58,690 nt of DNA from Candidatus Acidiferrales bacterium (GTDB lineage Archaea > Thermoproteota > Bathyarchaeia > 40CM-2-53-6). The DNA lies in NCBI GenBank assembly GCA_035517955.1, contig DATIYC010000066.1:1-58690 (forward strand), given 5' to 3'. Positions 29,903 to 58,690 of this stretch are shown here, in pieces (the first letter of the stretch is position 1; each line of letters starts with the position of its first letter). The notes under the pieces were generated by a model. It did not search any database and had not been told where the DNA came from. It saw nothing but the letters and a program-made list of their open reading frames with translations. The translations under genes were made by a program, and so were the position numbers.

Positions 29903-29904
29903 CT

Positions 29905-37419: not shown

Positions 37420-38490
37420 TTACTTTCGTTTCTTTGTTGGTCGGCCGCCCATCACCATTGCCATGACGGCTTTCTGAACATGGAGACGGTCCTCTGCCTG
37501 TTCGAAGTAGAGTGAGTAGTTCATGTTGTCGATTACTTCGTCGGTGACTTCTTGTCCCCGGTCTGCAGGTCCGCAATGTGTGTACTTGCCATGGTTTGTT
37601 AGGTCCATCATTTCTTGCGTACAGATCCAGTCCTTGAACTTGTCTTGGTAAGTCGTGGCTCCTGTTTTATCCACTGCGTTGCTGTGCGGCGGCAGGTAGC
37701 CCTTTGGAGACCATGCCTTGGGATAGACAACATCTGCGTCCTCGAAAGCCTCTTTCATGTTGTTTACTACTTTGAATCCTCCACCGTATCTGTCGGCGTT
37801 GGCTTTGGCGGCGTCGGTTACTACATCTTCGAGTTCGAAACCTGGAGGGTGTGCCAAGACGACGTCCATGCCCATCTGAGTTCCTATCAGAATCTCACTC
37901 TGTGGAACGGCGAGTGGTTTGAGGCCCCCTGAGTAGGCGTAGGAGACTACGAGCCTTTTTCCCTGGAGTTTCGGTATCGCTGCTCTCATAGCTTGCGCAT
38001 CCGCGAGCGCCTGAAACGGGTGATACATGTCATCCTCCATATTCAGAACGGGTATCGTAGCATGTTTGGCGAATTCTTGGACGACCTTGTGTCCCCTCCC
38101 GATGATCCATTTCGCGGCGTCTCCGTAAATGCGAATTGCAATGGCGTCACCGTATCGGCTTAGAACGCGAGCTACGTCCGAGATGGCCTCGGTTTGGTAG
38201 GCAACCATGTCTTCAGGTAAGGCTGGCGTGTAGACGTCCTGTGGGCTGAGAAAGTGCGCGTGCCCCCCAAGCTGGTACATGCCAGCTTCGAATGAGTTCC
38301 TCGTTCTGAGCGAACGGTTATAGAACATCATGAAAAGTGTTTTTCCGGGCAGGTACTCATGTTTCCTGCGTGCCCGAAACTGCTTCCTTAACTCGTCCGC
38401 AGCATTTAGGATCTTCTTGACTTCTTCTTGCGAGAAGTCGTTGGTATCAAGGAAATGTTTGCCGCTCCATAAACCTACGAAAGAAACCAA
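37420..38490 (-). CDS. YgeW-like (AOTC/SOTC-like) carbamoyltransferase, variant motifs
   Basis: 356 aa with SLRTR (in place of STRTR), HPFQALAD, PLAVPQSE, VVYPKAWSP, KDWICT and HCGP. It has no DxxxSMG ornithine loop. A TTG start is preceded by a GAGGGG SD-like element. Confidence 0.8.
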   Translation of the reverse strand: MVSFVGLWSGKHFLDTNDFSQEEVKKILNAADELRKQFRARRKHEYLPGKTLFMMFYNRSLRTRNSFEAGMYQLGGHAHFLSPQDVYTPALPEDMVAYQTEAISDVARVLSRYGDAIAIRIYGDAAKWIIGRGHKVVQEFAKHATIPVLNMEDDMYHPFQALADAQAMRAAIPKLQGKRLVVSYAYSGGLKPLAVPQSEILIGTQMGMDVVLAHPPGFELEDVVTDAAKANADRYGGGFKVVNNMKEAFEDADVVYPKAWSPKGYLPPHSNAVDKTGATTYQDKFKDWICTQEMMDLTNHGKYTHCGPADRGQEVTDEVIDNMNYSLYFEQAEDRLHVQKAVMAMVMGGRPTKKRK

Positions 38491-38557
38491 ATTTGCATAC
38501 CCCTCTTTTTCGATAGTTTTTGGGAATCTGACTTAAACCTTGGCTTTTATGCTTGCA

Positions 38558-39511
38558 TTAAACCTTAGGCGCGACTATGTGGGTGCCTGCCTTGTTCTCA
38601 AGTGCTTCAGTTAACTTCCCGAGAGATGCGATTATGGCCTGATCGCCTCCGCTTTCGACAAAACGTATCGCAGCCTCTATCTTTGGTGCCATGCTTCCTT
38701 CTTTGAATTGGCCGTCCTTCAAGTAGTTCTTCAGCTTCCCTGTACTGATCTCAGTGATTAACTCCTGTTTGGGCGTCCCGTAGTTCACGTACGCCCCTTC
38801 CACATCAGTCAAGACAACGAAAATATTCGCCCCGATCAGGGTTGCTAGCCTCTGTCCCGCCAAGTCCTTATCGATAACAGCCTCAACGCCGACTGCTTTG
38901 TCCTCCTCCTCGATTATTGGTATCCCTCCCCCGCCGCAAGCGACGACAATGAACCCCGAATCGACCAGCGCTCTGATTGCTAGGCGTTCAGCAATTATCT
39001 TCGGGTCAGGCGAGGCCACCACGCGCCTAAACCCTCGCCCAGCATCCTCCTTTACGACCAGTTCCGGTCTTTGTTGTTGGATCTTCTCCGCCTCCTCCTT
39101 AGAATAGAAGGGACCTACTGGTTTCGTTGGATGCTGAAACGCTGAATCATGTTTGTCGACGATCACTCTGGTTATCACCGTGACGACGAATTTGTCGACT
39201 CCTCGCGACTTCAACTCGTTCCGCAACGCCTGTTGTATCATGTAGCCAATGAAACCTTGAGTTTCAGCGCCGCATGCATCGAGTGGGAAAGGTGGAACGA
39301 TGTTCTTTGCCGCCTCGTGCCTGAGCATTGTTGCGCCAACTTGTGGCCCGTTACCATGAACCAGGACCATTTTGTGCCCACGCTCTATAAGATCAGCCAT
39401 TTTCGCCACGGTGGACTTAACGTTCTGATATTGTTCCTCGAAGGTACCCTTTTGCCCCCGTTGCAGAAGGGCGTTGCCGCCAAGTGCAATCACTATGAGA
39501 TTTTCGACCAA
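38558..39511 (-). CDS. arcC: Carbamate kinase
   Basis: 317 aa with IALGGNAL, VHGNGPQVG, ACGGGGIP, IDKDLA and MAPKIEAA. Confidence 0.92.
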   Translation of the reverse strand: MVENLIVIALGGNALLQRGQKGTFEEQYQNVKSTVAKMADLIERGHKMVLVHGNGPQVGATMLRHEAAKNIVPPFPLDACGAETQGFIGYMIQQALRNELKSRGVDKFVVTVITRVIVDKHDSAFQHPTKPVGPFYSKEEAEKIQQQRPELVVKEDAGRGFRRVVASPDPKIIAERLAIRALVDSGFIVVACGGGGIPIIEEEDKAVGVEAVIDKDLAGQRLATLIGANIFVVLTDVEGAYVNYGTPKQELITEISTGKLKNYLKDGQFKEGSMAPKIEAAIRFVESGGDQAIIASLGKLTEALENKAGTHIVAPKV

Positions 39512-39602
39512 TCACAAGCCCTCAATTGAATTGAAGAACGAAAAATCATCCGGTTTGACCTTATCAACTTTCACAGTCTTTTCAACGCAAGCGGAGGAAA
39601 TC

Positions 39603-39637: not shown

Positions 39638-39645
39638 TAAACGAG

Positions 39646-40677
39646 TTGCCTAAAGTTGACCTTACTGGCAGAGACCTGATTACGACCCAAGATTGGTCAA
39701 TGGAGGAGCTGCAAACCACTCTAAAACTTGCAGCCGAATTCAAAACTAAATACCACAAGGGCACAGTGCCCCCTCTTCTTCGAAACAAGACATTCTTCGC
39801 CCTTTTCTATGCTCCATCAACTAGAACGAGAGCGGCTTTCGAGGCTGGGATGACCTACCTTGGCGGCCACGCGCAGTACATCGACGTATCAACGACGCGC
39901 CTCGGCTCTGGGGAGGCTCCGAAAGATGTCGCGAAGATGTACGAAAAATACGGGCATGGGCTCGGGGTCAGAATCTTGGATTCCGCAATAGATTACGTCA
40001 GCGGCGCAGGAGTTTCCGTAGTCCGTGAATACGCAAGGCACGCCGAAATCCCTGTCATTAACATGGCTTGTTGTACATATCATCCCACACAAGGTCTCGC
40101 TGATTTAATGACAACGCAAGAATCGTTCGGTCGACTTCGCGGTAAGAAGTACGTGATAATGTGGGGTTACGCTAGAAGCTTCCGGGGTCGATGCAGCATA
40201 CAAGAGGAGGCGCTGATAATGCCTCGGTTTGGAATGGACACGATACTAGCTCACCCGCCTGGTTTCGAGATTGACTCCGAGATTCTTCAGCAAGCGAAAG
40301 CGAACGCAAAGGAATCAGGGGGAACGTTCGAAGTCACGAATGACCTGAATTCGGCTCTGGACGGAGCGAACGCGGTTTTTCCAAGAAATTGGGCTTCGAA
40401 CGCGTTACTAACAGTGGGAGCTGGTAAGTTTGGAAAAGATCGGGAATTAGAATTGCATGAGAAACATCGGGATTGGATGTTGACTGAGAGAAGATTGGAT
40501 AAGATGGATAAGAAGGCTATAGTGACGCATGTTCTGCCGGCTCTTCGTGGGGAAGAGGCCAGCGATGAAGTGATGGATGGCCCGCACTCAGTGATTTACC
40601 CCCAAGCAGAGAACGGCATGTATACGAAAATGGCGGCAATGGCGCTTACGATGGGCGGAAAGAAGAAACGGACCTGA
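39646..40677 (+). CDS. YgeW-like carbamoyltransferase (second, divergent paralogue)
   Basis: 343 aa with STRTR, HPTQGLADL, AVFPRNWAS, RDWMLT and HVLP. It has no SMG loop. It shares the basic C-terminal tail MGG(K/R)..KKR with 37420-38490. Confidence 0.82.
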   Translation: MPKVDLTGRDLITTQDWSMEELQTTLKLAAEFKTKYHKGTVPPLLRNKTFFALFYAPSTRTRAAFEAGMTYLGGHAQYIDVSTTRLGSGEAPKDVAKMYEKYGHGLGVRILDSAIDYVSGAGVSVVREYARHAEIPVINMACCTYHPTQGLADLMTTQESFGRLRGKKYVIMWGYARSFRGRCSIQEEALIMPRFGMDTILAHPPGFEIDSEILQQAKANAKESGGTFEVTNDLNSALDGANAVFPRNWASNALLTVGAGKFGKDRELELHEKHRDWMLTERRLDKMDKKAIVTHVLPALRGEEASDEVMDGPHSVIYPQAENGMYTKMAAMALTMGGKKKRT

Positions 40678-42168: not shown

Positions 42169-42199
42169 TTCAGATCGGAATCCAAGTTTGAAACGGTTT

Positions 42200-44039: not shown

Positions 44040-45392
44040 TTGACGCTCATGGTTCAAACGGCTGAGCGAGAAGACGTTGTAAGTTTAACGAAGCAGCATA
44101 CGTACGGGACATGGCGGGCGCAAAAAAGTTGGATTCCTCGAGAGGTTGTGAGTGCAGAAGGATGCTACTTCAAGGACGCTTCGGGTCAAGAATTCCTGGA
44201 TTTCTCGTCACAATTAATGTGCTCGAATCTGGGCCACGGTAACAAAGCGGTTATTGACGCAATATGTGAACAAGCTAGGAAGCTTCCCTACGCTGCCCCA
44301 GGCTTCACAACTGAAGCACGAGCGAAACTCACGGCAGCATTGGCAGAGGTCATGCCACATGGTTTGGAGAAATTTTTCTATGCTACGTCAGGAACTGAAG
44401 CAAATGAAGCTGCATTCAAAATTGCTAGGCAATTCACAGGCAAGTACAAAATAATCTCAAGATATGCATCATACCATGGCTCAACGGCGGGTTCGATAGC
44501 TGCTACCGGCGACCCTCGCCGATATCCAATTGAACCTTCAGGAAAAATGGAAGGTGTTCTATTCGGACCTGACGCATACTGCTATCGCTGTCCATTCGGA
44601 TTGAAGTATCCCGACTGTGGTATTGCATGCGCAGACTACTTGGAATACATGATTAAGCATGAATCCAACGTCGCAGCCGTCATCGTAGAACCTGTTGTAG
44701 GCACGAACGGCGTCATTGTCCCGCCTGACGAGTACTTGCCGCGTCTTCGTGAAGTCACCGAGGAAAACGATGTCTTACTGATCTGTGACGAAGTCATGTC
44801 TGGCTGGGGACGAACTGGTGAATGGTTCGCGGTTAATCATTGGAAAGTCAAGCCTGATATCCTAACGACCGCAAAGGGTGTCACTGGGGCGTATGTTCCG
44901 CTGAGTGTTACCGCAACAACTCGCAACATCTCTGACTATTTCGAGGAACATTACTTTGCTCACGGTCATACGTATGAAGCTCATCCAATGACTCTCGCGC
45001 CGGGAATTGCTGCGATTAGTGAGTACAAGCGATTGAACCTCATCGAGAGGGCACGAACAATGGGACAATATACGGGGAAGAAACTTACGGCTCTCCAAGA
45101 GAAGCATCCGTCGGTTGGAGATGTACGCGGAATAGGCTTATTCTGGTCACTAGAGCTTGTAAGAAACAGGAACAATAAAACGCCCTTCAACACCGGCGAG
45201 GAGAAACTTCAAGGTAAACCAATGGTCTCGGACGGGGTTGCCGCAGAATGCATGAAGAATGGCACTTACGTAATGTCGTGGCTCAATTACATGATAATTG
45301 CTCCACCATTGATAGTCACGCCCGAAGAGATCGACAAAGGCGTTGCCGCCCTTGACAAAGGACTGACGGTCGCTGACAAAGAAGTCGTCTAA
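44040..45392 (+). CDS. Class III (omega-type) aminotransferase
   Basis: 450 aa with SGTEANE, CDEVMSGWGRTG and TTAKG (PLP lysine). Confidence 0.85.
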   Translation: MTLMVQTAEREDVVSLTKQHTYGTWRAQKSWIPREVVSAEGCYFKDASGQEFLDFSSQLMCSNLGHGNKAVIDAICEQARKLPYAAPGFTTEARAKLTAALAEVMPHGLEKFFYATSGTEANEAAFKIARQFTGKYKIISRYASYHGSTAGSIAATGDPRRYPIEPSGKMEGVLFGPDAYCYRCPFGLKYPDCGIACADYLEYMIKHESNVAAVIVEPVVGTNGVIVPPDEYLPRLREVTEENDVLLICDEVMSGWGRTGEWFAVNHWKVKPDILTTAKGVTGAYVPLSVTATTRNISDYFEEHYFAHGHTYEAHPMTLAPGIAAISEYKRLNLIERARTMGQYTGKKLTALQEKHPSVGDVRGIGLFWSLELVRNRNNKTPFNTGEEKLQGKPMVSDGVAAECMKNGTYVMSWLNYMIIAPPLIVTPEEIDKGVAALDKGLTVADKEVV

Positions 45393-45422: not shown

Positions 45423-46814
45423 TCAAGTGTAACTCCACTTAGACTTGACGCTGATCCCAGCTCTTTCAAGTAGCCTCGCAGCTCTTGCGTTAGCCTCCTG
45501 TATGATCGCACTTTCGTTAAGTGTCCTTATCTGACCGCGCGCCATCAGAATTTTCCCATCCACAATTACCGTATCAACGTCAGAGCCCTCACCAGAATAG
45601 ACGAGGTGAGAAATTGGATTCAGGGTCGGTGTCAGGTGCGGACTATCTAACCGAACTATAGCCAAATCAGCCTTCTTCCCGACCTCTAGAGAACCAATTT
45701 CATTATCCAATCCTAACGCCTTGGCTCCGTTAATTGTCGCCAACTCAAGTACGTCTTCCGCGCTCATGACAATGGGATCGTATAATCTCACTTTTTGAAT
45801 CAGTGATGCGAGTTTCATTTCACGGATCATATCATAGCAGTTGTTACTTGGACCCCCATCGCAACCTAGGCCAACGTTTACGCCATGCTTGATCATTTCA
45901 GGTACGGGTGCAATCCCAGAAGCTAATTTCGTGTTGGAGGATGGGCAGTGGGCCACTGTTGCGCCCTTTGCGGCTAGTATTTTCCACTCCTTTTCAGCCA
46001 ACCAGACTCCATGCGCGAAGACAACCTTCGGTCCCATCACCCCTACTTGATCCATGAACTCAGCAGGCAGTTTCGCGAACTCCTTGTTTGCGTATTTTAC
46101 GTCCTCTTGGACTTCGCCGAGATGCATCGTGATACCGATTTTGAGTCGTTTGGCACCCTCCGCGATTCGGCTGTACAGTTCGGGTGTACACGCTCCTAGT
46201 GAACGAGCCCCATACCATACCTGTACCCGTCCACCCGCTTTACCATTCCAACGATTGTAGTAGGTCTCGACTTCGCGAAGGCATGTTTCCGCATCCTCGA
46301 TCATGCCCCTGTGCATGATGCTCTTCTCCGTTCCATAGCTAGGCATGCCCATCACAGTCTTTGAAAGAATTCCGCGCATTCCTGACCGTTCAACAGCCTT
46401 CGCGATTCCATCGAACCCATAGCGCGTGTGCAGGAGGCTTTCTAGGAAAGTGGTTGTCCCAGATTTGATCATCTCTAGCATGCACAATTCAGCGCTCACT
46501 CTTCCGTCCTGCGCGTCGAAATTTCCTTGGAGTGGCCAAACGAATTTCTGAAGCCAATCAATCAATGAGGTGTCATCCGCGCAGCCGCGGATTAGGGCTT
46601 GAGCGAGGTGAACATGAGTATCAATCAGCCCTGGTAGCACAATCTTCCCGGTGGCATCAATTTCGAATTCTGCACGACTTCTAGGCCTTACCTCATCTAC
46701 CTTTCCGATTAGCGATATGCCGCTGTCTTCTATGAGAATGGCGCCATCTCGAATTACTCGTCGATGGGCATCCATAGTGATTATGGTTCCGCCCTTTATG
46801 AGAACTGTCGACAT
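45423..46814 (-). CDS. COG0402 amidohydrolase/deaminase (MTA/SAH-, guanine- or SsnA-like)
   Basis: 463 aa with PGLIDTHVHLAQ, TMHLGE, FAHGVW and LGCDG. Confidence 0.85.
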   Translation of the reverse strand: MSTVLIKGGTIITMDAHRRVIRDGAILIEDSGISLIGKVDEVRPRSRAEFEIDATGKIVLPGLIDTHVHLAQALIRGCADDTSLIDWLQKFVWPLQGNFDAQDGRVSAELCMLEMIKSGTTTFLESLLHTRYGFDGIAKAVERSGMRGILSKTVMGMPSYGTEKSIMHRGMIEDAETCLREVETYYNRWNGKAGGRVQVWYGARSLGACTPELYSRIAEGAKRLKIGITMHLGEVQEDVKYANKEFAKLPAEFMDQVGVMGPKVVFAHGVWLAEKEWKILAAKGATVAHCPSSNTKLASGIAPVPEMIKHGVNVGLGCDGGPSNNCYDMIREMKLASLIQKVRLYDPIVMSAEDVLELATINGAKALGLDNEIGSLEVGKKADLAIVRLDSPHLTPTLNPISHLVYSGEGSDVDTVIVDGKILMARGQIRTLNESAIIQEANARAARLLERAGISVKSKWSYT

Positions 46815-46917: not shown

Positions 46918-47502
46918 CTAAGACCTTCGATCGTTTTCTTTTCGAAAGTCTTCAAGAGCTCTGTTCAAGGTTACAACTGCTCCCTTTTGTAAATGTTCAA
47001 TTGCAGCCAGCGCGGCTCGATGAGCGTCTTTACTTGTTCCAGCAACGCAGTCCTCAAGAACCTTGACCCTAAAATCGAATTGATGCGCATCCATAGCAGT
47101 AAGGTAGACACAGACGTCAGTTGCCGCACCCGTAATATAGAGCGTGTCTACGTTCAAACCACTCAGAAGTACTTGCAGGTCGGTTCCAAAGAAGCCACTA
47201 TAACGCCTCTTCGTTACCACATAATCCAAATCAGTTGGCACTAATTCTTCGACTATCCTCGCTCCAATGCTACCCTCGACGCAATGAAGTGGCTCATCGC
47301 CATCCAACTCTCTACCGAAGTCTACCTTCTGAGCCCTATGCACTTCCTGAGTAAATATGCACGGAATGCCCGCATCGTGCGCTTCCGCGATTAATTGCCG
47401 GATTTTCGGCACAATTTGTGTTGCTCCCTCGCATGGGACTGGTCCGGAGGGGTCAACGAAGTCATGTTGCATGTCAATTATCAATAATGCCGGTCTACTC
47501 AT
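46918..47502 (-). CDS. Isochorismatase-family cysteine hydrolase (amidase type)
   Basis: The D-K-C triad context is ALLIIDMQHDF, VVTKRRYSGF and TGAATDVCV. The start is taken at MSRPALLIID; the track ORF extends to 47619. Confidence 0.78.
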   Translation of the reverse strand: MSRPALLIIDMQHDFVDPSGPVPCEGATQIVPKIRQLIAEAHDAGIPCIFTQEVHRAQKVDFGRELDGDEPLHCVEGSIGARIVEELVPTDLDYVVTKRRYSGFFGTDLQVLLSGLNVDTLYITGAATDVCVYLTAMDAHQFDFRVKVLEDCVAGTSKDAHRAALAAIEHLQKGAVVTLNRALEDFRKENDRRS

Positions 47503-47706
47503 GTTAAGGCGCCCTGGTTTCAAAAGTATACCTTTGCTAGGATTCGATCGGCCACCTAAATGAAACTTTGACGAACCATAAAATCGAAGAAGATTACGAT
47601 GAATTTTAGCTTGGCACAATGCGTATCGTTTTTTACCTGTGTATTTACCTTGGGCGACCGGAACATGCGAAAGTGTTAAATTCGAAATCTGCGTCGCCCC
47701 TAAGTT

Positions 47707-49396: not shown

Positions 49397-50374
49397 CTAC
49401 CCGGAAGTGAGTTGGAAGCTGAGAATCTTCTTGTCGGCTATATTGACGATGGCTCCTCGTAGCATTCCTTCGGGGTAATCACTACCCGGATTCACTACAA
49501 GTGTCTTTCCAATTCTTGTTGTTCCTCTAGATTCGTGCACGTGACCGCAAAGGTGCAGAAGGGGTTGGTGTTTTTCGATCTCCTTGCGGATGGAAGTACT
49601 ACCGGCTCCGAACATGACTGCCTGTCCTTTATCGAAGACAGGCTTCGGAGGATAAACCGAAGCATCCAACTTTGGCACAGTATCCAGGCCACAATCAATT
49701 GGTGGAACGTGAATGTTGAAGACACAGTTCTGAACGTCGCTGACAGATGCAAGCATGTTCTCTGTGGCAGCGAGTAATTCCTCTTCCGTGTGATCTCGAG
49801 GACATTTCCAAGGCGTGGGGTTGCTCCACCCTAGGTTCACCATCTCGTGAAGCCCGTCGATCTTGAGCACCTTATTGTCAGCATTCTTGACGTGAGGCGT
49901 ATCCTTGATGTCGTCGATAATCTCCTGATAATCATCGTTCCCACCTGTTAGATAACAGGTAACACCAAGGTTGCCCAAGAAAGATTCAGCGCGATCAACC
50001 CATTTTATCAGCGAATCTTTCATAACACTCATGAAAAGCTTGTCAACTTTTTCTTTCGAGGCATTGAGCTCATCCATTTCAGTTTTCCCGCAATGATACG
50101 GGTAGTAGCCACTATTTGTGATTTCAAGCTCCAAAGCTTTGACCTCATCAGGTCCATGCAAGGTTTTGACTCCAACGTAATCCGCCTTGAAAGTGCCGTC
50201 ACCCATGTCCACTATGGGAACAAGCATCTTTCCGGTCAAGTCGCCCCCCAGAACCAACACGTCCACCTTGTAGAACTTCGCTGCACTTAGCAACTTATCA
50301 TAGCAACGCGTCGAACCGTGAAGATCGGTTGCAAAGAATATTTTCGTGAATTTCTTTTCTGGCATACCTCTCAA
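49397..50374 (-). CDS. Calcineurin-like metallophosphoesterase
   Basis: 325 aa with FFATDLHGS, LGGDLTGK, GGNDD and CGHVHES. Confidence 0.75.
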   Translation of the reverse strand: MRGMPEKKFTKIFFATDLHGSTRCYDKLLSAAKFYKVDVLVLGGDLTGKMLVPIVDMGDGTFKADYVGVKTLHGPDEVKALELEITNSGYYPYHCGKTEMDELNASKEKVDKLFMSVMKDSLIKWVDRAESFLGNLGVTCYLTGGNDDYQEIIDDIKDTPHVKNADNKVLKIDGLHEMVNLGWSNPTPWKCPRDHTEEELLAATENMLASVSDVQNCVFNIHVPPIDCGLDTVPKLDASVYPPKPVFDKGQAVMFGAGSTSIRKEIEKHQPLLHLCGHVHESRGTTRIGKTLVVNPGSDYPEGMLRGAIVNIADKKILSFQLTSG

Positions 50375-50627: not shown

Positions 50628-52424
50628 TTGTTCGAATTCGATGGTCGAAGACCACTGCACGAAATGACACGGACACTCGTAGATACTGCGATGGGACGAA
50701 GCAAGGCAGATTTGGTGGTTCAAAACGCATCGATTGTAAACGTAAACTCCGGCGAAATACTAGAGAATGTGAACATAGCCACTAAAGAAGACAGAATCGC
50801 ACTGATTGGAAACGTCAAGCACACGATTGGTCCAAACACCGAAGTGGTTGACGTGAAAGGAAAATACGTAAGCCCAGGATTCATCGACGGACACTGCCAC
50901 GTCGAGAGTGCACTCGTCACCGGAACTGGATATGCGAAAGCGGTCCTACCACATGGAACAACCACCGTATTTATCGACCCTCACGAAATCACTAACGTCC
51001 TCGGATTGGAGGGCGTAAGGTTCTTCCTTGACGAAGCACGCGCCCTTCCTCTCAAAATGCTGGTCACATTTCCTTCCTGCGTCCCCGCGGCACCCGGCTT
51101 CGAAACTAGTGGTGCTTCGATTGGGCCAAGTGAGGTTGCTGAGGCAATGAGCTGGAAGGGGATCGTAGCGCTAGGTGAAGTGATGAACTATCCCGGCGTA
51201 CTCGCCTCCGACGCTAATGTACACGGCGAGATTGCTGCCACCCTCAGGCATGGAAGGGTTGTTGAAGGACATGCAGTCGACTTATTGGATCGAGACTTGG
51301 CTGCATACGCCGCTGCTGGAATCACATCATGCCACGAATCGACAAAGGCAATTCAAGCCATGCAGAAAATCAGAGATGGAATGTATGCAATGTTGAGGGA
51401 AGCATCTGGTGCACGAAATGTTGCCGAAACAATACGAGCGATTACCATTGAGAAACTTAACCCGCGTCATGTCTGTCTGGTCACCGATGACCGTGAGCCT
51501 GGCGACCTCCTACGCGAAGGGCACATTGACCATGCCATCCGTAGAGCTATCCAGGAAGGCGTGGACCCAATCGTAGCAATACAAATGGCAACCCTGAATA
51601 CCGCGGAACATTTTGAATGTGCAAGAGAGATCGGCAGTATAGCCCCTGCCCGGTTCGCCGATATGGTTATCCTGAATAAACTTGAAACAATCGATATAGA
51701 TTCAGTCATTGCAAACGGAAGATTCGTTAGCCATCACGGCAGACTTACAAACGAAATAGCGTACCCCAAGTTCCCTGAACGGGCAAGGAATTCCGTCCAC
51801 CTCAAACACTCCCCGGCCAGTGACGATTTGATCATCAAGACGAAAACGAGAGACGGCTCGGTCAGAGCACGAGTCATCGGAGTTCTGCCTACCGAGATCT
51901 CCACACGGAATCTCGAACTTGAGGTCCCTGTGAAAAATGGACAGGCATTAGCTAATGCTAATGAAGATATTGCAAAAATAGCAGTCTTTGAGCGCCACTC
52001 AGCTACCGGTAACGTTGCTGCCGGTTTCATAAAAGGACTCGGACTCAAGCGTGGAGCTGTGGCTTCGACCGTTGGACATGACAGCCACAACCTTGTCGCA
52101 GCAGGCATGGAAGACAAAGACATTACCGCTGCTGCCAACGCACTCGCGCGTATTGGAGGAGGCATGGTAGTTGTGAAAGATCAGAGAACTATCGCAATTG
52201 TTCCTCTACCCATTGCCGGACTAATGTCGGACAAGCCCGTTGAAACAGTCTCAGCAGAGATCGACCAATTGAAGAAGGCATGGTCAGACCTGGGCTCAAC
52301 TCTTCCCTCACCGTACATGACTCTTGCCTTCACAACGCTCTCCGTGATCCCTGAACTCAGAATCACCGACAAAGGAGTGCTGGATACGGTTCAATTCAAG
52401 TTCGTGAATCCAATCATAGAGTAA
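50628..52424 (+). CDS. ade: Adenine deaminase (amidohydrolase superfamily, long form)
   Basis: 598 aa with SPGFIDGHCHVES, GHA, TDD and HDSHN motifs and the C-terminal adenine deaminase domain. Confidence 0.82.
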   Translation: MFEFDGRRPLHEMTRTLVDTAMGRSKADLVVQNASIVNVNSGEILENVNIATKEDRIALIGNVKHTIGPNTEVVDVKGKYVSPGFIDGHCHVESALVTGTGYAKAVLPHGTTTVFIDPHEITNVLGLEGVRFFLDEARALPLKMLVTFPSCVPAAPGFETSGASIGPSEVAEAMSWKGIVALGEVMNYPGVLASDANVHGEIAATLRHGRVVEGHAVDLLDRDLAAYAAAGITSCHESTKAIQAMQKIRDGMYAMLREASGARNVAETIRAITIEKLNPRHVCLVTDDREPGDLLREGHIDHAIRRAIQEGVDPIVAIQMATLNTAEHFECAREIGSIAPARFADMVILNKLETIDIDSVIANGRFVSHHGRLTNEIAYPKFPERARNSVHLKHSPASDDLIIKTKTRDGSVRARVIGVLPTEISTRNLELEVPVKNGQALANANEDIAKIAVFERHSATGNVAAGFIKGLGLKRGAVASTVGHDSHNLVAAGMEDKDITAAANALARIGGGMVVVKDQRTIAIVPLPIAGLMSDKPVETVSAEIDQLKKAWSDLGSTLPSPYMTLAFTTLSVIPELRITDKGVLDTVQFKFVNPIIE

Positions 52425-52445: not shown

Positions 52446-53477
52446 CTAGCTAGAGGCATTGAAAGCGTTGATCATGGCGTGCACATCGTCAGCCAAAGGG
52501 TAGAGCACTGGACACGTGCAACCAGTGGCAGTGTATTCGCCAATTTTCTTAAGACAATCTTCGGCTGTTCCACTCGCCGAGATTAGGCGCACCAGTTTGT
52601 CGTCAACGAGTGCTTTTGCCTTCTCTAGACCACCAGGTTTTGCAGGCCACCCTCCAAGCGCTGTTTTGACCTCCTCGATTAAGGACTCCTTCACTCCGCT
52701 CGCTTTCGCGATGTGAGGCTGTTGCCCTAGGTACTGAGCGATTAGTGGACGAGCGCTGTCAAGTGCCTTGTCCGCATCGTCATCGAGTGAGCATACAACC
52801 AGCTGTGGTCTGTCGATGTCCTCCAACTTTCGACCTTCTTCCTTGGCGCCCTCTTTGAGGTATTCCAGTGCTTTTCGGTTATAGTCTGGAGAGACCAAGT
52901 AGTTCAGGAGGAGCCCGTCGGCCAACTCACCCGTCATCCTAATCATGTCCCAGCCTGTTGCGCCAATGTAGATTGGGATGTGGCGTGGGGTTGAGGGATC
53001 ACCATAAACCACATCAAGCCTGATGTCCCTCACGTTCACAAACTCACCCTCGTATGTCACGTTCTCCATTCGGAATAATCGTTGAAGAACGGTCACGTAT
53101 TCACGCATAGCCTTGAGAGGTTTCTTTCGATCGATCCCAACCTTCCAAGCAAGTGGATCCCACCAGGCACCTATGCCAAGCAATGCTCGACCTTCGGATA
53201 GCTCATCTAGCGTTAGAAAAGATGCCGCCGTTAACCCGACATTGCGGGTCCAATTGTTTATGACTCCTGTGCCAAGTTTGATCTTCTTCGTTACTGCCGA
53301 GATTGCAGCTAGGGGTATGAGTGCGTCACGCGCAAGGCGCGATTCTGCGTGCCAAATAGCTTCGAATCCCTTTTGTTCAGCGTACTGGCAAAGCTCCATC
53401 TCTTCCTTTACCCGATGCTTATCCTGAAGGTAGAGGGCGACACGTTTCATGGGAGCATTGTGGGAAGGCTTAGACAA
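52446..53477 (-). CDS. Luciferase-like monooxygenase (LLM) class, F420-dependent-type oxidoreductase
   Basis: 343 aa with the TIM-barrel LLM pattern (FEAIWHAE, KLGTGV.N...RN). It is divergent from the XDH operon. Confidence 0.78.
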   Translation of the reverse strand: MSKPSHNAPMKRVALYLQDKHRVKEEMELCQYAEQKGFEAIWHAESRLARDALIPLAAISAVTKKIKLGTGVINNWTRNVGLTAASFLTLDELSEGRALLGIGAWWDPLAWKVGIDRKKPLKAMREYVTVLQRLFRMENVTYEGEFVNVRDIRLDVVYGDPSTPRHIPIYIGATGWDMIRMTGELADGLLLNYLVSPDYNRKALEYLKEGAKEEGRKLEDIDRPQLVVCSLDDDADKALDSARPLIAQYLGQQPHIAKASGVKESLIEEVKTALGGWPAKPGGLEKAKALVDDKLVRLISASGTAEDCLKKIGEYTATGCTCPVLYPLADDVHAMINAFNASS

Positions 53478-53631
53478 TAGTATTGCGCAGACAAGTAATC
53501 ATTGAGTTCAATCAACGAGAAGCAACGCAACCTGAAGAATGCGGTTCGTGAGAGTACCTGGTGAATGGTTAAGAGTGACGCGTTTAAGCTCCCGTAAAGC
53601 TTACCAAACTTTGCTTGTAGGAGTAGTTGCG

Positions 53632-54117
53632 GTGCGAGTAGAGCAGACTATTAGTTTCAAGCTTAACGGACAGCCCGTATCCGTGAGTTGCCCCCCTGCG
53701 TATACTCTACTCGAGGTTCTGCGAGACCAACTCCATGTCACAGGCCCTAAGGAGGATTGCGCGAAGGGAGAGTGCGGCGCGTGCACCGTGATTATGAATG
53801 GCGTTCCAGTATGTTCATGCCTCGTTCTTATTTCGCAGGCGGACGGATCTGAGGTCGTCACTTCCGAGGGGCTAGTTAAAGATGGTAAATTGAACCCAGT
53901 TCAGGAAGCGTTTCTTGAGGAGGGGGCCGTGCAGTGCGGGCACTGTATCCCCGGCATGATAGTCTCCGCTACAGCGCTTCTCATGCGAAACTCTAACCCA
54001 TCAACAGACGAAATCAGAACAGCGCTTTCAGGGAATCTTTGCAGATGTACGGGTTACACGAAGATAATCGCCGCGGTTCAGAGAGCCGCGAACAATTGGA
54101 GTCACCAGAAGCCATGA
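53632..54117 (+). CDS. Xanthine dehydrogenase/CO dehydrogenase family, [2Fe-2S] small subunit
   Basis: FKLNGQPV..., CAKGECGACTV and CGHC.PG....CRCTGY motifs. The track ORF starts at 53539, but GTG 53632 fits the usual N-terminus better. Confidence 0.88.
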   Translation: MRVEQTISFKLNGQPVSVSCPPAYTLLEVLRDQLHVTGPKEDCAKGECGACTVIMNGVPVCSCLVLISQADGSEVVTSEGLVKDGKLNPVQEAFLEEGAVQCGHCIPGMIVSATALLMRNSNPSTDEIRTALSGNLCRCTGYTKIIAAVQRAANNWSHQKP

Positions 54118-54998
54118 TGCGATACGAAATAGAAGTGATAACGCCGAGGATTCTAGCCGAGGCGTTGAACATATTGGCCAAGAATGAACCTGGAACCAGG
54201 ATTGTAGCCGGCGGCTCAGACGTTATTGTCCAATTGAGGGACGGGGTATTGCGGGCGAAAAAGCTTCTAAACATTCTACCATTGAAGGAATTGAGGTTTA
54301 TCAGAAGCGATCGTGATACCGTTCACATTGGTTCACTTGCAACGTATAGTGACATCGTGCATTCTCCGATAACTCAAGATCATGCTTGGCCCTTGGTTGA
54401 GGCGGCTAAACAAATAGGAGCAGTCCAACTCCAGAACACAGCCACGCTGGGAGGTAATTTGGGAAACGCCTCACCCGCAGGCGACAGCATACCCTCGCTG
54501 TATGCACTTGATGCAACTGTCTCGACACGAAGCCGAGATGGCACACGCAAAATTCCTATCGAGCAGTTTTTTCAAAGCTATCGAAAAATAGACCTCAAAC
54601 CTGACGAATTGATCGAGGAAGTTTACTTCAAGGGATTAGGGAACAGGGACCGAGGTTGTTACGTCAAGCTGGGCTTGCGAGATGCTAATGCAATCTCCAT
54701 CGTAGACGTTGCTGTTGTATTACGGGATGAAAGAGAGGATAAATCGTTCAAAGAAGCCAGAGTTGCTTTGGGAGCAGTGGCACCAACAATCCGACGTTCC
54801 CGAAGATGCGAAGAAACACTTGAATCGATTCCGCTGACTCCTGACCTCTTAAAGAAAGCAGCAAACTTGGTCGCTGACGATGTCTCTCCGATAGACGATA
54901 TTCGAGGATCAGCCGAATACAGGAAAGAAGTTGTAGTCTCAATCACCTACGAAGCCCTTTATCGAGCCGTTTACGCGGAGGAGGAACATCGTGGATAG
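54114..54998 (+). CDS. XDH/CODH family FAD-binding medium subunit
   Basis: VAGGSDVIVQLRDG, ATLGGNLGNASPAGD and the C-terminal IDDIRGSAEYR. The ATGA start/stop overlaps the small subunit gene. Confidence 0.85.
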   Translation: MMRYEIEVITPRILAEALNILAKNEPGTRIVAGGSDVIVQLRDGVLRAKKLLNILPLKELRFIRSDRDTVHIGSLATYSDIVHSPITQDHAWPLVEAAKQIGAVQLQNTATLGGNLGNASPAGDSIPSLYALDATVSTRSRDGTRKIPIEQFFQSYRKIDLKPDELIEEVYFKGLGNRDRGCYVKLGLRDANAISIVDVAVVLRDEREDKSFKEARVALGAVAPTIRRSRRCEETLESIPLTPDLLKKAANLVADDVSPIDDIRGSAEYRKEVVVSITYEALYRAVYAEEEHRG

Positions 54999-55230
54999 AT
55001 TCGTCCACGTCAGAGTGAAGGTTTTCGGCGCACCATCTTTCGCGCTTGAAGGCAAGGAGCTTACTGTAGAGTTGAAGGAAAACGCTACTACTGATGACCT
55101 GTTAAGAACAATTCAAGTCAAAGACCCGAGCTACCTCTACGTTGTGCGTGAAGGAATCCGACTAAACGGATCCTCCAAGCTCAATGACGGCGACGAGATA
55201 CTTGTAGTTCCGCCGATCGCGGGAGGTTAA
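54991..55230 (+). CDS. MoaD/ThiS-family ubiquitin-like protein ending in Gly-Gly
   Basis: 79 aa ending ...LNDGDEILVVPPIAGG* (MoaD consensus dGDEvaffPPvsGG). The GTG start overlaps the FAD-subunit stop. Confidence 0.75.
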   Translation: MDRFVHVRVKVFGAPSFALEGKELTVELKENATTDDLLRTIQVKDPSYLYVVREGIRLNGSSKLNDGDEILVVPPIAGG

Positions 55231-57554
55231 TTGGTACGACAGAAACACTGACAACAAAAGAATTCTCACTGAAATGGGTCGGTAAACCGATTCGACGAAA
55301 AGACGGGGAAGGCAAAGTCACCGGCCAAACGAAATTCTTCTCAGATATGAAACTGCCAAACATGCTCTACGCCAAGGTTAAACGCAGCAAATACCCGCAT
55401 GCCCTGATTAAGAGCATCGATACGAAGCGAGCAGAGACTGCTCCAGGCGTAGTTGCAGTGCTTACATACAAGGATGTTCCGGCAACCAACGGATTTGGAA
55501 TTCTCATCCCTGACCAGCCGGTACTCTGCTGGGAAAAAGTGAGGTACATGGGAGACGCGGTGGCAGTAGTTGCCGCCGAAACCCCAGAGGCGGCCGAAGA
55601 AGCTACCAACCTGGTAGAGGTCGAGTACTCACCACTTCCTGTAATATCGGAACCGCTTGAAGCCATGAAGCACGACGCTCCTAAAGTCCATGAAAAGGGC
55701 AACATTCTACGACACTCTCGAGTAACTGTAGGGAATGTGGATGAGGCATTCCGAAACGCTGCCTTCGTGGTTGAGAACACGTACAGAACGGGCCGGCAGA
55801 TGCACATGTATCTTGAAACCGAGGCGGGAGTTGGAATGCTTGACGAGAACGGAAAACTTGTTCTCTACTCGGGTGGCCAGTCACCCTACAGGGACCAGAT
55901 GCAAATTTCACGGGCACTGGGCATCAAAGCTGAGGATATTCGGGTTATCTCCACACCAGTAGGAGGTGCATTTGGAGGAAAGGAGGAGAATACCGTCCAA
56001 ATTCACCTCGCCCTCCTAGTAACGAAAACAAAACGTCCTGTAAAAATGGTTTGGAGTAGGGAGGAATCTGGCTCCGCTGGAATGAAGCGCCACCCAATGG
56101 TCGTAACTATGAAAACTGCCGCGGACCAAGAAGGACGGCTGGTGGCGAACCAAGTTCGAATTCTTGCCGACACTGGGGCATATGCATCCCTCGGTCCTAC
56201 AGTTCTGGACGTTGCGATTGAGAATTCATGTGGACCGTACCGTATTCCCAACGTAGACATCGACGCCTACTCGGTGTATACAAACAACGGGGTTGCAGGT
56301 GCTTTCCGCGGCTTCGGCTCCCCTCAAGTAAATTTCGCTTTAGAGTCGAACATAGACATTCTAGCGGAAAAACTACACATAGATAGATTGGAAATACGGA
56401 AGAAGAACGTGGTTCGTAAGGGAGACACTGGACCCCTCGGCCAGAAATTACAAGATAGCGTAGGCATTTATGAAACACTTCAGAAAGCCGAGAGTTCGGA
56501 CCTCTGGAATAATCGAGAAAAATACAAGGCACAAACCTCGGCACCATGGTGTAAACGCGGAATCGCCGTCTCGACCGCGGTCAAAGGATTCGGTTTTGGA
56601 GCTCTCCCAGACTTCGCTGCAGCCTCGATCCAGATTACCCCAACGGGAAAATTCGTGGTTGGCGTCAGCTGCCCAGAAATTGGCCAAGGCGCAATAACGG
56701 CATACGCGCAAATTGCCGCGGAAGCACTACATTGCGACATTGCAGACGTTTACATCGCCTCAGCCGATTCTGGCCTCGCACCTGACTCAGGCACCTCGTC
56801 TGCATCAATGGGATTAGTGAGAGGGGGCAACGCCATACTAACAACCGCTCCTAAAATGAATGAGCTATTGCTCGAAACAGCAAGCAAGATAATAGCAGAA
56901 CAGAAGGCCGATCTCGAATTCCAGGAATCACAAATCATTAGCAAAAGAAACCCAAAGAAGACTGTAAACTACATTGACATAGCGCAGTATCTTTACAACT
57001 CAAGTTCAGAGACCAGAATCGTTGCTGGGTACAACGTTCCTCGAGCCGACAAACCGGTGGAGGGAAGCATCGAAATTCCCCACTTGGCCTACATGTACGG
57101 CACGGCCATCGCCCTAGTGGAAGTCGATACTTTGACGGGATCAACGAAAGTGCTCAAGTTCTTTCTCTCGACAGACTCAGGCAAGATGATCAACCCTCAA
57201 TCATACACAGGCCAATGCGAGGGTGCTATAGTTCAGGGACTGGGATTCGCCTTAACTGAAGAAACACAAATCAATGAGGGCATAACCAAAACAAACAACT
57301 TCACAACATACATCATTCCAACAATCTGCGATGTCCCGGAGATTCAAATTGACCCTGTAGAAACGTACGAGAAAGTCGGTCCGTTCGGCGCCAAAGGATT
57401 AGGAGAAATAGGAATAATCCCCGTCGGATCTGCCGTAGCCAACGCAATATACGACGCCACCGGAGAAAGGGTCTTCACCCTACCTGCCACACCAGAGCGA
57501 GTATACAAGGCTATGAATGAGAGGAGAAACAGTGCCACCAAAAGTAACCGTTAG
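55230..57554 (+). CDS. XDH/aldehyde oxidoreductase family molybdopterin-binding large subunit (5' end uncertain, no canonical start)
   Basis: Family motifs are GGAFGGKE and AKGLGE. The conserved N-terminus KWVGKPIRRKDGEGKVTGQTKFFSDM is encoded at 55272-55349, upstream of the first ATG (55347). The frame is open from 55188 with no ATG/GTG/TTG, so ATT 55230 is a tentative start. Confidence 0.88.
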   Translation: MGTTETLTTKEFSLKWVGKPIRRKDGEGKVTGQTKFFSDMKLPNMLYAKVKRSKYPHALIKSIDTKRAETAPGVVAVLTYKDVPATNGFGILIPDQPVLCWEKVRYMGDAVAVVAAETPEAAEEATNLVEVEYSPLPVISEPLEAMKHDAPKVHEKGNILRHSRVTVGNVDEAFRNAAFVVENTYRTGRQMHMYLETEAGVGMLDENGKLVLYSGGQSPYRDQMQISRALGIKAEDIRVISTPVGGAFGGKEENTVQIHLALLVTKTKRPVKMVWSREESGSAGMKRHPMVVTMKTAADQEGRLVANQVRILADTGAYASLGPTVLDVAIENSCGPYRIPNVDIDAYSVYTNNGVAGAFRGFGSPQVNFALESNIDILAEKLHIDRLEIRKKNVVRKGDTGPLGQKLQDSVGIYETLQKAESSDLWNNREKYKAQTSAPWCKRGIAVSTAVKGFGFGALPDFAAASIQITPTGKFVVGVSCPEIGQGAITAYAQIAAEALHCDIADVYIASADSGLAPDSGTSSASMGLVRGGNAILTTAPKMNELLLETASKIIAEQKADLEFQESQIISKRNPKKTVNYIDIAQYLYNSSSETRIVAGYNVPRADKPVEGSIEIPHLAYMYGTAIALVEVDTLTGSTKVLKFFLSTDSGKMINPQSYTGQCEGAIVQGLGFALTEETQINEGITKTNNFTTYIIPTICDVPEIQIDPVETYEKVGPFGAKGLGEIGIIPVGSAVANAIYDATGERVFTLPATPERVYKAMNERRNSATKSNR

Positions 57555-57807
57555 ACTGTTTCATGAATTAAGAGAAAGCCTTGGCCAAAGCCAACTGGAA
57601 GTCGAGGCTGACACACTTGGAGACGTCGTAGCTTCCCTTATTTCGAAAAAAGATTCAGTAAGAGACTTAATCTTTGATTCCCGTGGTAAAATTCGGACGT
57701 ATACGACGGTTTACATCAATAACGCAGCTCAAACTCCCCCTGAATTCTCGAGGAAACTAAATGACGGAGACATAATCCTACTTGTTCCTACTGCCGCGGG
57801 CGGATGA
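57532..57807 (+). CDS. Second MoaD/ThiS-family ubiquitin-like protein ending in Gly-Gly
   Basis: It ends ...LNDGDIILLVPTAAGG*. It overlaps the large-subunit 3' end. GTG 57532 or ATG 57517 could be the start. Confidence 0.7.
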   Translation: MPPKVTVRLFHELRESLGQSQLEVEADTLGDVVASLISKKDSVRDLIFDSRGKIRTYTTVYINNAAQTPPEFSRKLNDGDIILLVPTAAGG

Positions 57808-57829
57808 AAAATAGTTGCGACGATTTGAC

Positions 57830-58690
57830 ATGTACGTCCCAATGAATCAGATGGACCTTCTCCATTACATCAACGAACACCAGACCGGCGTACAACTAAT
57901 AGCGAACGGAAGCGACCTCATCAACCGGATCCAGCGTCGGCAAGTGAATCCGAAAGTGCTTGTCGACCTGACTGGGCTTACGGAATTGAGTTATGTCGAG
58001 AAGGAAAATGGTACCTTCAAAATAGGAGCAATGACAACAATAGCTGAACTTATAGCATCACCACTCTTTGACTCAAAATACGAAGCCATAAGAGAAGTGG
58101 CAAGAAAGTTTGGTGGCCCATCCATTGTCAATGTTGCAACGGTTGGAGGAAACGTGTGCTCTGCGTCTTCCTCAGAAGATCTGTTACCGTTGCTGTTAGT
58201 GCTTGACGCACAGGTTCGAACCCGGAGCGTAAAGGGAGACCGCGTAGTGCGGCTAGAGGATTTTCTCAAAGGAAAACGCATGGTTGACTTAAGCCCTAAC
58301 GAAATAATGGTAGAGGCAACGTTCTCAGATATTGATCAGAATGCTAGGTGCGCCTTTGAGAAGGTCGGCATGAGAAACTCTCTCATAACGGCTTTCGTCA
58401 ACTGCGCGATTTATTTGAAACTTGCAACGAAAACAAATCGAATCGAGGACATTCGAATAGCATTCAACCGAGTCAACGGTAAGATCCCGGCCCGCGCTAA
58501 GAATACGGAAGAAAAGATGCGAGATAAGCCACTTGATCATAAGCGCCTGACAATGTCGATCGACGCGTTAAGAAACGAACTTCGGCTCACGTCGGACTTT
58601 AGAGCCTCACAAGAATACAGGATGGAGGTTGCATGTGCACTATTCAAGAGAACGCTTACCAGGTGCGTAGATGGGTTGACTGGAGAGAAG
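57830..58690 (+). CDS. Second XDH/CODH-family FAD-binding subunit, 3'-truncated by the window end (absent from the ORF track)
   Basis: From ATG 57830 the frame is open for 287 codons to the last base. Motifs are IANGSDLINRIQ, ATVGGNVCSASSSEDL and SDFRASQEYR. Confidence 0.75.
   Translation, partial: MYVPMNQMDLLHYINEHQTGVQLIANGSDLINRIQRRQVNPKVLVDLTGLTELSYVEKENGTFKIGAMTTIAELIASPLFDSKYEAIREVARKFGGPSIVNVATVGGNVCSASSSEDLLPLLLVLDAQVRTRSVKGDRVVRLEDFLKGKRMVDLSPNEIMVEATFSDIDQNARCAFEKVGMRNSLITAFVNCAIYLKLATKTNRIEDIRIAFNRVNGKIPARAKNTEEKMRDKPLDHKRLTMSIDALRNELRLTSDFRASQEYRMEVACALFKRTLTRCVDGLTGEK

Follow-up and report, generated by a model that had tools for sequence, protein, structure and literature searches.

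Can an archaeon of the Bathyarchaeia make ATP from purines, and with which enzymes would it do so? Members of this lineage abound, uncultured, in peat, soils and sediments, and what supplies their energy is under debate. The question is raised by contig DATIYC010000066.1 (NCBI GenBank assembly GCA_035517955.1, deposited as Candidatus Acidiferrales bacterium and placed by GTDB in the Bathyarchaeia), of which positions 37,420 to 58,690 hold an island of genes for purine deaminases, molybdenum (Mo) enzymes of the xanthine dehydrogenase (XDH) family, carbamoyltransferases and a carbamate kinase. The whole stretch of DNA analysed, 58,690 nucleotides long, is called the window here. Family calls are based on a listing and translation of its open reading frames (ORFs) with Pfam and NCBIfam scans, which recovered in place every gene family named by an earlier sequence-only reading of the locus. 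CT1 and CT2 (carbamoyltransferases), CK (carbamate kinase), CysKL, AH402, MPE (metallophosphoesterase) and ADE (adenine deaminase) are working labels for island genes (see the table). With slightly better than even confidence, we read the island as an archaeal, probably F420-dependent variant of reductive purine degradation, with an ATP-yielding lower part made up of two carbamoyltransferases and a carbamate kinase, because the core shared by distant archaeal clusters maps step by step onto a pathway defined in bacteria.

The evidence that carries this reading comes from distant archaeal clusters. On a 171-kb contig (L091), a single run contains ADE, an XDH-2-like enzyme, CT1 (74% identity), a CysK that passes the cysK model, a ThrC-like pyridoxal phosphate (PLP) enzyme, an XDH-1-like enzyme, CT2 (54%), an SsnA-like amidohydrolase, a luciferase-family (LLM) oxidoreductase (55%) and CK; SsnA is the best NCBIfam family for the amidohydrolase (366 bits, below cut-off). 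Two further clusters, L093 and L094, the latter from a Nitrososphaerales metagenome-assembled genome (MAG), combine a ThrC-like gene, XDH, CT2 (52-53%), MPE, an APC permease, LLM, an SsnA-like gene, a HyuA-like gene (40% identical to E. coli HyuA, 311 bits), an AH402-like gene (53%) and CK. Hot-spring archaeal MAGs (L088-L090) have MTAP, CK, CT1 (77%), CysK-like and ThrC-like genes, an ECF transporter and CT2 (66%), together with a gene of the Asp/Glu (hydantoin) racemase family and a hydantoinase/allantoinase-like amidohydrolase, and another Bathyarchaeon (L031) joins a Bmp binding protein, a phosphopentomutase-type PGM and DeoC to CT1 (58%), a ThrC-like gene and AH402 (51%). Gene order differs in all of these clusters, and none has the RDD, thioredoxin reductase (TrxR) or electron-transfer flavoprotein (ETF) genes that lie beside the island in the window. 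As the order is shuffled and that flank is gone, what is left is a persistent core: CT1, CT2, CK, ThrC-like (plus CysK-type) PLP enzymes, XDH-type enzymes, LLM, ADE or AH402, and MPE with the APC permease. SsnA-like and HyuA-like hydrolases accompany the core in its fuller versions. This recurrent co-localisation in distant archaea exceeds chance and is the decisive evidence; the chance juxtaposition that the sequence-only reading had named as one refuting outcome is not borne out.

Conservation among close relatives is less telling. All island proteins were compared by tblastn with 80 genome loci anchored on AH402. About 17 of these, from Bathyarchaeia, place XDH-1, LLM, ADE, MPE and the APC permease to one side of AH402 and, to the other, the PLP genes followed by CT2, CK and CT1; one locus (L036) keeps nearly the whole island in the same order. 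The synteny in related MAGs that the earlier reading asked to be checked therefore holds as far as order is concerned, but unrelated genes left of CT1 (RDD, TrxR, a metallo-beta-lactamase (MBL)-fold gene, an aminotransferase, an HdrD-like gene and ETF) are equally syntenic, so that the conservation is partly ordinary collinearity; having been considered as decisive evidence, close-relative synteny was downgraded on this account. Several relatives insert a Bmp-family, nucleoside-type ABC transporter between the permease and AH402, and several have a different CysK and ThrC-like pair. Paralogous segments of MPE, permease, (Bmp ABC transporter) and AH402 occur three times in MAG MFD04408.bin.2.179 (L012, L017, L020) and twice in MAG MFD02248.bin.2.124 (L007, L039), at 70-76% identity to the window protein, which suggests expansion of the system.

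The bacterial reductive pathway for urate and 2,8-dioxopurine was defined in 2025. Its genes in E. coli are xdhD-ygfM, ygfK, ssnA, hyuA, ygeW, yqeA, ygeY, as well as ygeX, with variants in C. sporogenes and C. difficile; urate is reduced by XdhD to 2,8-dioxopurine, which YgfK or UacX then dearomatises, SsnA serves as a ring-opening amidohydrolase, the hydantoin is opened by HyuA, one ureido group is turned into ATP through YgeW and the carbamate kinase YqeA, the other is removed by YgeY, and diaminopropionate becomes pyruvate through YgeX (bioRxiv 10.1101/2025.05.19.654654; 10.1101/2025.04.24.650524). Formation of ATP from 2,3-diureidopropionate by YgeW and YqeA has been shown in bacteria (2025 preprint). 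Archaea are mentioned in neither of the two preprints, and we found no archaeal description of such a route in the searchable literature, as the sequence-only reading had supposed.

In the archaeal version that we propose, purines or nucleosides would be taken up by the APC permease, to which relatives add the Bmp-type transporter, and aminopurines would be deaminated by ADE and the deaminase-like AH402. The two XDH-family enzymes would then hydroxylate or dehydroxylate the ring, and the oxopurine would be dearomatised by the Mer-like LLM, probably with F420H2, in the role played in bacteria by YgfK or UacX. After ring opening, ureido groups would be phosphorolysed by CT1 and CT2, perhaps giving up to two carbamoyl phosphates from which CK would form ATP, and the C3 diamino acid would go to pyruvate and ammonia through ThrC/CysK-type PLP enzymes. 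The sequences themselves establish the gene families and their recurrent co-localisation in distant archaea; every substrate, F420 as the cofactor and the direction in which flux runs are what we infer from them. The deamination-to-ATP route sketched by the earlier reading is essentially the 2025 bacterial pathway, and in the archaeal clusters carbamoyltransferase, CK, PLP, XDH and LLM genes are indeed linked with hydrolases of the SsnA-like and HyuA-like kinds; what that route lacks in the window is its ring openers. Were the reductive-purine reading correct, this conserved and sometimes multi-copy island would give Bathyarchaeia a fermentative niche on the products of nucleic-acid breakdown, since purine breakdown would be coupled to substrate-level ATP synthesis. 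It would also extend the 2025 bacterial pathway to archaea and supply candidate enzymes for F420-dependent dearomatisation and for a higher-yielding lower pathway with two carbamoyltransferases, all of them expressible and directly testable. A bolder version strikes us as unlikely: that peat and soil archaea (Bathyarchaeia and Nitrososphaerales types) ferment purines F420-dependently, both ureido groups of the opened ring being phosphorolysed by two dedicated knotted carbamoyltransferases for up to two ATP per purine through CK, and the Bathyarchaeial ring openers being unrelated to SsnA and HyuA.

Likeness to the bacterial pathway lies in the XDH-family Mo enzymes, a carbamoyltransferase with CK, PLP enzymes of fold-type II and purine deaminases encoded nearby, to which related archaeal clusters add SsnA-like and HyuA-like genes and an LLM that abuts the SsnA-like gene as ygfK does ssnA in E. 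coli. There are differences too. The host is archaeal; a Mer-like LLM stands where bacteria have YgfK or UacX; the carbamoyltransferases number two, and the YgeY peptidase is absent; in place of YgeX the island has PLP enzymes of the ThrC/CysK type; its two Mo enzymes have three subunits each and are without the E606 insertion of XdhD; ThiS/MoaD-like ORFs lie inside the Mo operon; and SsnA and HyuA are missing from the window. When the E. coli pathway proteins were compared with the window by direct BLAST, identities ranged from 21 to 46%. The idea that the island mirrors the functional classes of the E. coli ygeV-ygfT region accordingly stands best for CK (46% to YqeA) and poorly for the YgeW (29-34%), SsnA (25%) and YgeX (21%, to the ThrC-like protein) counterparts.

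CT1 and CT2, which are 37% identical to one another, both keep the carbamoyl-phosphate motifs S-x-R-T-R and H-P-x-Q. Both have lost the ornithine motif DxxxSMG (YPKAWSP in CT1, FPRNWAS in CT2) and have an altered HCLP (HCGP, within HCGPAD, in CT1; HVLP, within HVLPAL, in CT2); the alignment is anchored on an ArgI sequence. CT1 has in common with E. coli YgeW the KPLxVPQ loop (KPLAVPQS), YPKxWxP, KDWxCT and HCxPAD. The earlier description of both transferases as YgeW-like is thus apt for the motifs of CT1 and fails on overall similarity: by BLAST, CT1 is 34% and CT2 29% identical to YgeW, and the two score 131-164 bits (CT1, 158-164) on YgeW models with cut-offs of 453-500. The best NCBIfam model for CT1 is N-acetylornithine carbamoyltransferase (AOTCase; 273 bits against 288), CT2 is below the cut-off of every model (the top one being ornithine carbamoyltransferase, OTC, at 206 against 281), and on the OTC model TIGR00658 they reach 231 and 206 bits against 281, short of an OTC assignment for either. 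In a sequence search of the PDB, CT1 comes nearest to the Xanthomonas AOTCase and CT2 to the P. furiosus OTCase, and databases annotate their homologues as ornithine or N-acetylornithine carbamoyltransferases. Judged by motifs and scores, both appear to be orphan members of the knotted class, neither YgeW orthologues nor canonical OTCases. CT1 stands out as the island's most conserved gene, with at least 73% identity throughout the 120 closest matches listed and 74-77% in the distant clusters L088 and L091; CT2 orthologues are 52-66% identical in L088, L091, L093 and L094. The carbamate kinase had been correctly recognised: it passes the arcC model, is the sole island protein with substantial identity to its E. 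coli counterpart, and is 75-77% identical in L093 and L094.

For the LLM, the eleven best NCBIfam matches are all F420-dependent LLM families and all below cut-off (Mer, 196 against 276), and the closest PDB entries by sequence are F420-dependent Mer proteins. We consider it probably F420-dependent and a candidate dearomatising reductase. Its orthologues (54-55%) immediately adjoin the SsnA-like genes of L091, L093 and L094, in the last two with a spacing of 5 bp. Chloroflexota clusters have been described in which a putative F420-dependent luciferase-family enzyme occurs instead of YgfK (Li et al., 2025). In them a PF00296 LLM lies beside SsnA, as in the three archaeal clusters; they differ in being bacterial and known just as neighbourhood colouring, and the two Chloroflexota homologues of AH402 that we retrieved (L035, L037) have no linked island gene.

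ADE had also been identified correctly, passing the cut-off of its equivalog model and containing the Adenine_deam_C domain. The COG0402 protein AH402 had been described as a deaminase or ring amidohydrolase; a ring-opening role like that of SsnA did not hold. On SsnA models it scores 214-226 bits against cut-offs of 444-455, while the deaminase models DadD and MtaD score higher; among E. coli proteins, GuaD (27%, 155 bits) is closer to it than SsnA (25%, 91 bits); and its best PDB matches are AtzA (atrazine chlorohydrolase) and MTA/SAH deaminase. A crude neighbour-joining tree groups it with unlinked Hadarchaeota and Asgard homologues, apart from the SsnA clade, and Hadarchaeota, Asgard archaea and Chloroflexota have homologues at 47-55% identity that lack island neighbours. 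Moreover, L093 and L094 contain it alongside SsnA-like and HyuA-like genes, and the canonical Denitrovibrio cluster L079 has it together with SsnA, HyuA and YgfK. A role as SsnA substitute or ring opener was rejected on account of this coexistence and of the clustering with unlinked archaeal homologues; AH402 is probably an aminopurine or nucleoside deaminase feeding the pathway.

Both Mo enzymes of the island have now been seen whole. Six metagenomic contigs from other samples match the window end at 99.8-99.9% identity; they were retrieved by exact look-up with the MoaD-like ORF, the XDH-1 large subunit taken from ATG 55347 giving no match. One of them, L001 (99.8%), alone extends further, and it completes XDH-2 with an FAD subunit of 283 aa, a 2Fe-2S subunit of 159 aa and a Mo subunit of 774 aa, so that the partner subunits expected beyond position 58690 are present. 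Since the genes that follow on L001 (Band7/NfeD, HhH-GPD and MFS) are unrelated to the island, the island ends just beyond the window. For both large subunits the NCBIfam ranking is headed by PucD-type and Se-dependent XDH, with PucD below its cut-off (552 bits for XDH-2), and both keep the FRGFG motif and the catalytic Glu of the Glu1261 type. The 79-aa ORF within the XDH-1 operon is 73-79% identical in the Bathyarchaeia relatives L009, L016 and L036; the gene calls of the L091, L093 and L094 clusters include none of the ThiS family. From their sequences, the ThiS/MoaD-like ORFs could be dedicated MoaD proteins for supply of the molybdenum cofactor, or ubiquitin-like modifiers. In the XDH-1 large subunit itself, a conserved N-terminal stretch of some 36 aa (…KWVGKPIRRKDGEGKVTGQTKFFSD) lies upstream of, and in frame with, ATG 55347 (55194-55347, + strand); it offers no ATG, GTG or TTG start, and the sole in-frame candidate near GGAGGT is ATT 55230. 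As the six near-identical contigs from other samples agree, the missing canonical start is probably not a sequencing error; the L036 orthologue starts at ATG.

Several observations weigh against the reductive-purine reading. The first is the gap at ring opening: neither the 58.7-kb window nor, in the 17 close Bathyarchaeia loci, the DNA within 10 kb of AH402 contains a gene of the SsnA-like or HyuA-like kind, and a search of the window and of the archaeal loci examined found no orthologue of YgfK, YgeY or YgeX. The window's single other amidohydrolase, of the PRK07213 type, is about 35 kb from the island. Given the absence of SsnA-like and HyuA-like genes here, the ring-opening hydrolases must be encoded elsewhere in these genomes or replaced, and the island as found is an incomplete or modular version. 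The model scores of the carbamoyltransferases, LLM and XDH enzymes are all under curated cut-offs. Strand switches are frequent, and the island is not one operon; it is built from several transcription units. The unrelated flanks shared by close relatives, already described, belong here too. As for the Mo enzymes, the best PDB match of the XDH-1 Mo subunit is the E. barkeri nicotinate dehydrogenase, a grouping that the sequence-only reading had seen as damaging; it appears among solved structures and is not repeated in the NCBIfam ranking. The purine-binding residues (bovine numbering) are split: position 802 is Glu in XDH-1 and Ser in XDH-2, and position 880 is Val in XDH-1 and Arg in XDH-2; the alignment is anchored on a human XDH fragment, and the split is a lead and not a test. 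The XdhD insertion with E606, a residue singled out in XdhD (Li et al., 2025), is absent from both large subunits, which are 28-30% identical to XdhD.

The strongest competitor holds that two independent modules happen to be neighbours, one for purine salvage or oxidation (permease, phosphoesterase, ADE, AH402, the XDH enzymes and LLM) and an ATP-yielding one of CT1, CT2, CK and PLP enzymes that would consume citrulline, N-carbamoyl amino acids or hydantoin-derived substrates. The hot-spring clusters L088-L090 fit it, with their carbamoyltransferase, CK and PLP genes next to those for a hydantoinase, a protein of the racemase family and an ECF transporter and without any XDH, as do the window's want of an SsnA and a HyuA to join the halves, the strand switches and the general collinearity of close relatives. 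Set against this, in L091, L093 and L094 the carbamoyltransferase and CK genes sit in tight runs on one strand, interleaved with those for XDH, LLM and SsnA-like proteins, and L031 ties CT1 and the ThrC-like gene to nucleoside catabolism; we regard the two-module account as rather unlikely. Alternatively, the carbamoyltransferases and CK might be biosynthetic, CK making carbamoyl phosphate (as proposed for Pyrococcus) for arginine, with the purine neighbours incidental. CT1 comes close to the AOTCase cut-off and is conserved like a housekeeping gene, and the PDB matches and source annotations point the same way. Yet arg genes are absent from all clusters examined, where the partners are XDH, LLM, SsnA-like and hydantoinase-like genes, nucleoside transporters and DeoC, and with the lost DxxxSMG, the altered HCLP and scores under every OTC cut-off we give this explanation little credence.

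No greater credence attaches to the suggestion that the substrate of the Mo enzymes, LLM and hydrolases is an N-heterocycle other than a purine, such as nicotinate, a pterin or something like an s-triazine, making the island not purine-specific. It draws on the nicotinate dehydrogenase match of XDH-1, on the lack of a full E802 and R880 pair in either large subunit (by the alignment on the human fragment), and on PDB best matches to atrazine chlorohydrolase for AH402 and biuret hydrolase for the isochorismatase. A bona fide adenine deaminase within the island, the NCBIfam preference of both large subunits, the Bmp nucleoside transporters, DeoC and phosphopentomutase added by relatives and the SsnA-like and HyuA-like genes of related clusters all speak for purines instead, and a nicotinate or triazine route has no need of a pair of carbamoyltransferases and CK in such an arrangement.

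Table. Features of the island, with two features from elsewhere in the window; bit scores are followed by model cut-offs where available.
Feature	Coordinates	Strand	Basis
CT1, knotted-class carbamoyltransferase with YgeW-type motifs	37420-38490	-	OTCace_N and OTCace domains
CK, carbamate kinase	38558-39511	-	TIGR00746 arcC, 432 bits against 358
CT2, second, more divergent carbamoyltransferase	39646-40677	+	OTCace domains
ThrC-like fold-type II PLP enzyme, N-terminal Cys-rich segment	40915-42168	-	PALP, 258 bits; PRK08197, 318 against 303
CysKL, long CysK/TrpB-like PLP protein, 488 aa	42362-43828	+	PALP, 46 bits (weak); CysK, 83 bits
Class-III (omega) aminotransferase	44040-45392	+	Aminotran_3, 290 bits; PRK06062, 430 against 472
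AH402, COG0402 amidohydrolase	45423-46814	-	Amidohydro_1; best NCBIfam DadD, 444 bits against 522
Isochorismatase-family hydrolase	46918-47619	-	Isochorismatase, 160 bits; BiuH and RutB far below cut-off
APC-superfamily permease	47707-49248	+	AA_permease_2, 59 bits
MPE, metallophosphoesterase, substrate unassigned	49397-50374	-	Metallophos_3, 40 bits
ADE, adenine deaminase	50628-52424	+	TIGR01178, 552 bits against 472.5; Adenine_deam_C (PF13382), 218 bits
Mer-like LLM (luciferase-family) oxidoreductase	52446-53477	-	Bac_luciferase, 226 bits
XDH-1, three-subunit XDH-family enzyme	53539-57554	+	2Fe-2S, FAD and Mo subunits
XDH-1 2Fe-2S subunit	53539-54117	+	Fer2_2 and Fer2; XdhC, 180 bits
XDH-1 FAD subunit	54114-54998	+	FAD_binding_5 and CO_deh_flav_C; gene call from L002 (99.9% identical)
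ThiS/MoaD-like 79-aa ORF ending GG, inside XDH-1 operon	54991-55230	+	Translation; ThiS (weak) on L001/L002
XDH-1 molybdopterin subunit	55230-57554	+	Ald_Xan_dh_C, MoCoBD_1, MoCoBD_2; PucD, 605 bits against 784
MoaD/SAMP-like 96-aa ORF ending GG	57517-57807	+	ThiS, 29 bits; MoaD_arch, 46 against 49.5; SAMP1, 46 against 60
XDH-2 FAD subunit, cut by window end	57851-58690	+	FAD_binding_5 and CO_deh_flav_C
Second COG0402-type amidohydrolase	2165-3400	+	PRK07213 'chlorohydrolase', 366 bits against 294
tRNA, 121 nt	78-198	-	Rfam, 38.7 bits; missed by ARAGORN

The remaining island genes vary in how firmly they belong. The permease pairs with MPE, a pair kept in Bathyarchaeia at 78-89% identity and found side by side in L093 and L094 (permease 49-50%, MPE 44-47%); MPE has the metal-ligand motifs DLHG, GGDLTG, GGNDD and GHVHE, and a sequence search of the PDB gave no match for it. 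Among the PLP enzymes, the ThrC-like protein passes threonine-synthase models, and its relatives adjoin CT1 in L031, L088, L091 and L013-type loci; a partial ThrC-like gene stands at the start of L093 and L094, upstream of the XDH genes and CT2. CysKL, which the sequence-only reading had enrolled in the pathway, could not be secured there. It carries a TrpB-like GSHK motif, and its homologues are annotated in their sources just as 'cysteine synthase' or 'PLP-dependent enzyme', with no characterised relative found; an AlphaFold model from a shallow alignment of 21 sequences reached a mean pLDDT of 53.5, too poor for a fold search. Its part in the pathway is doubtful because the family is very abundant and highly conserved (8000 candidates scored, all at E <= 1e-10, with the best 120 listed at 76-83% identity) and a 76% homologue in L095 sits in an unrelated context. 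It is probably an important uncharacterised Bathyarchaeial enzyme all the same. Orthologues of the aminotransferase (86-87%) are limited to L007 and L009 among the AH402-anchored loci, and it is an accessory or doubtful member. Relatives also have extra island genes (L036 14591-15640; L009 17690-19596; L010 5598-6518) for an Ldh_2 dehydrogenase (PF02615, the malate/L-lactate dehydrogenase family), a D-2-hydroxyacid dehydrogenase and xylose-isomerase-like TIM-barrel proteins, all of which might act on the C3 product or on other intermediates of the ureido type.

The isochorismatase-like amidase, too, is a doubtful member of the pathway to which it had been assigned. No homologue was found in any archaeal relative among the 80 AH402-anchored loci, and the protein is 34-35% identical to a gene of clostridial XDH clusters; we regard it as accessory and specific to this contig, and, having no archaeal counterpart, it may be a recent acquisition. 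The ORF as listed opens at TTG, with a 38-aa extension beyond the Pfam domain, and the true start is likely the ATG at about 47505 (MSRPALLIIDMQ…).

One of those clostridial clusters, L051 1-17000 from Lutispora saccharofermentans, comprises an amidohydrolase, an isochorismatase, UbiX, UbiD, a bacterial microcompartment (BMC) gene, an ADE-like gene, a xanthine permease, an AH402-like gene, XDH and ADE, and clusters of this type recur in L048, L049, L059, L063, L064 and L067, hosted by Clostridia (Lutispora, Caloramator, Alkaliphilus) and a Calditrichales genome, the XDH large subunit being split in two. In classical clostridial purine fermentation, xanthine passes through 4-ureido-5-imidazolecarboxylate, 4-aminoimidazole and formiminoglycine; its genes were unassigned as of 2012 (PMC3519856), and the searchable literature gave nothing usable on assigned ones. 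The gene content of the Lutispora-type cluster fits that chemistry, with predicted hydrolysis of the ureido-imidazolecarboxylate, decarboxylation and deamination. It resembles the island in its AH402-like (41-45%), isochorismatase and ADE-like genes and its XDH, and differs in having UbiD/UbiX, BMC and xanthine permease genes and no carbamoyltransferase, CK or LLM; a Pfam scan of the archaeal island found no UbiD or UbiX. Fermentations of the arginine or agmatine deiminase type share with the proposed route the phosphorolysis of a ureido group and ATP formation through carbamate kinase, whereas the island is without a deiminase and its carbamoyltransferases lack SMG and score under both the OTC and the putrescine carbamoyltransferase (PTC) cut-offs.

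The window is archaeal by its own markers, which include an intron-sized tRNA, CDC48 and a geranylgeranyl-reductase (GGR)-like gene, and the nearest genomes are, all of them, peat and soil Bathyarchaeia MAGs (AH402 identity 69-76%). The length of the tRNA, 121 nt, suggests an archaeal intron. Left of the island, positions 27648-37387 hold a GGR-like FAD oxidoreductase, ETF alpha and beta, a membrane Fe-S protein of the HdrD/CCG type, a second class-III aminotransferase, an MBL-fold protein, TrxR and an RDD protein, syntenic with the CT1-adjoining regions of L008, L010, L011, L013 and L020. These genes may form a module for amino-acid fermentation or electron transfer, and in the matching region L010 carries an additional 2,4-diaminopentanoate-dehydrogenase-like gene.

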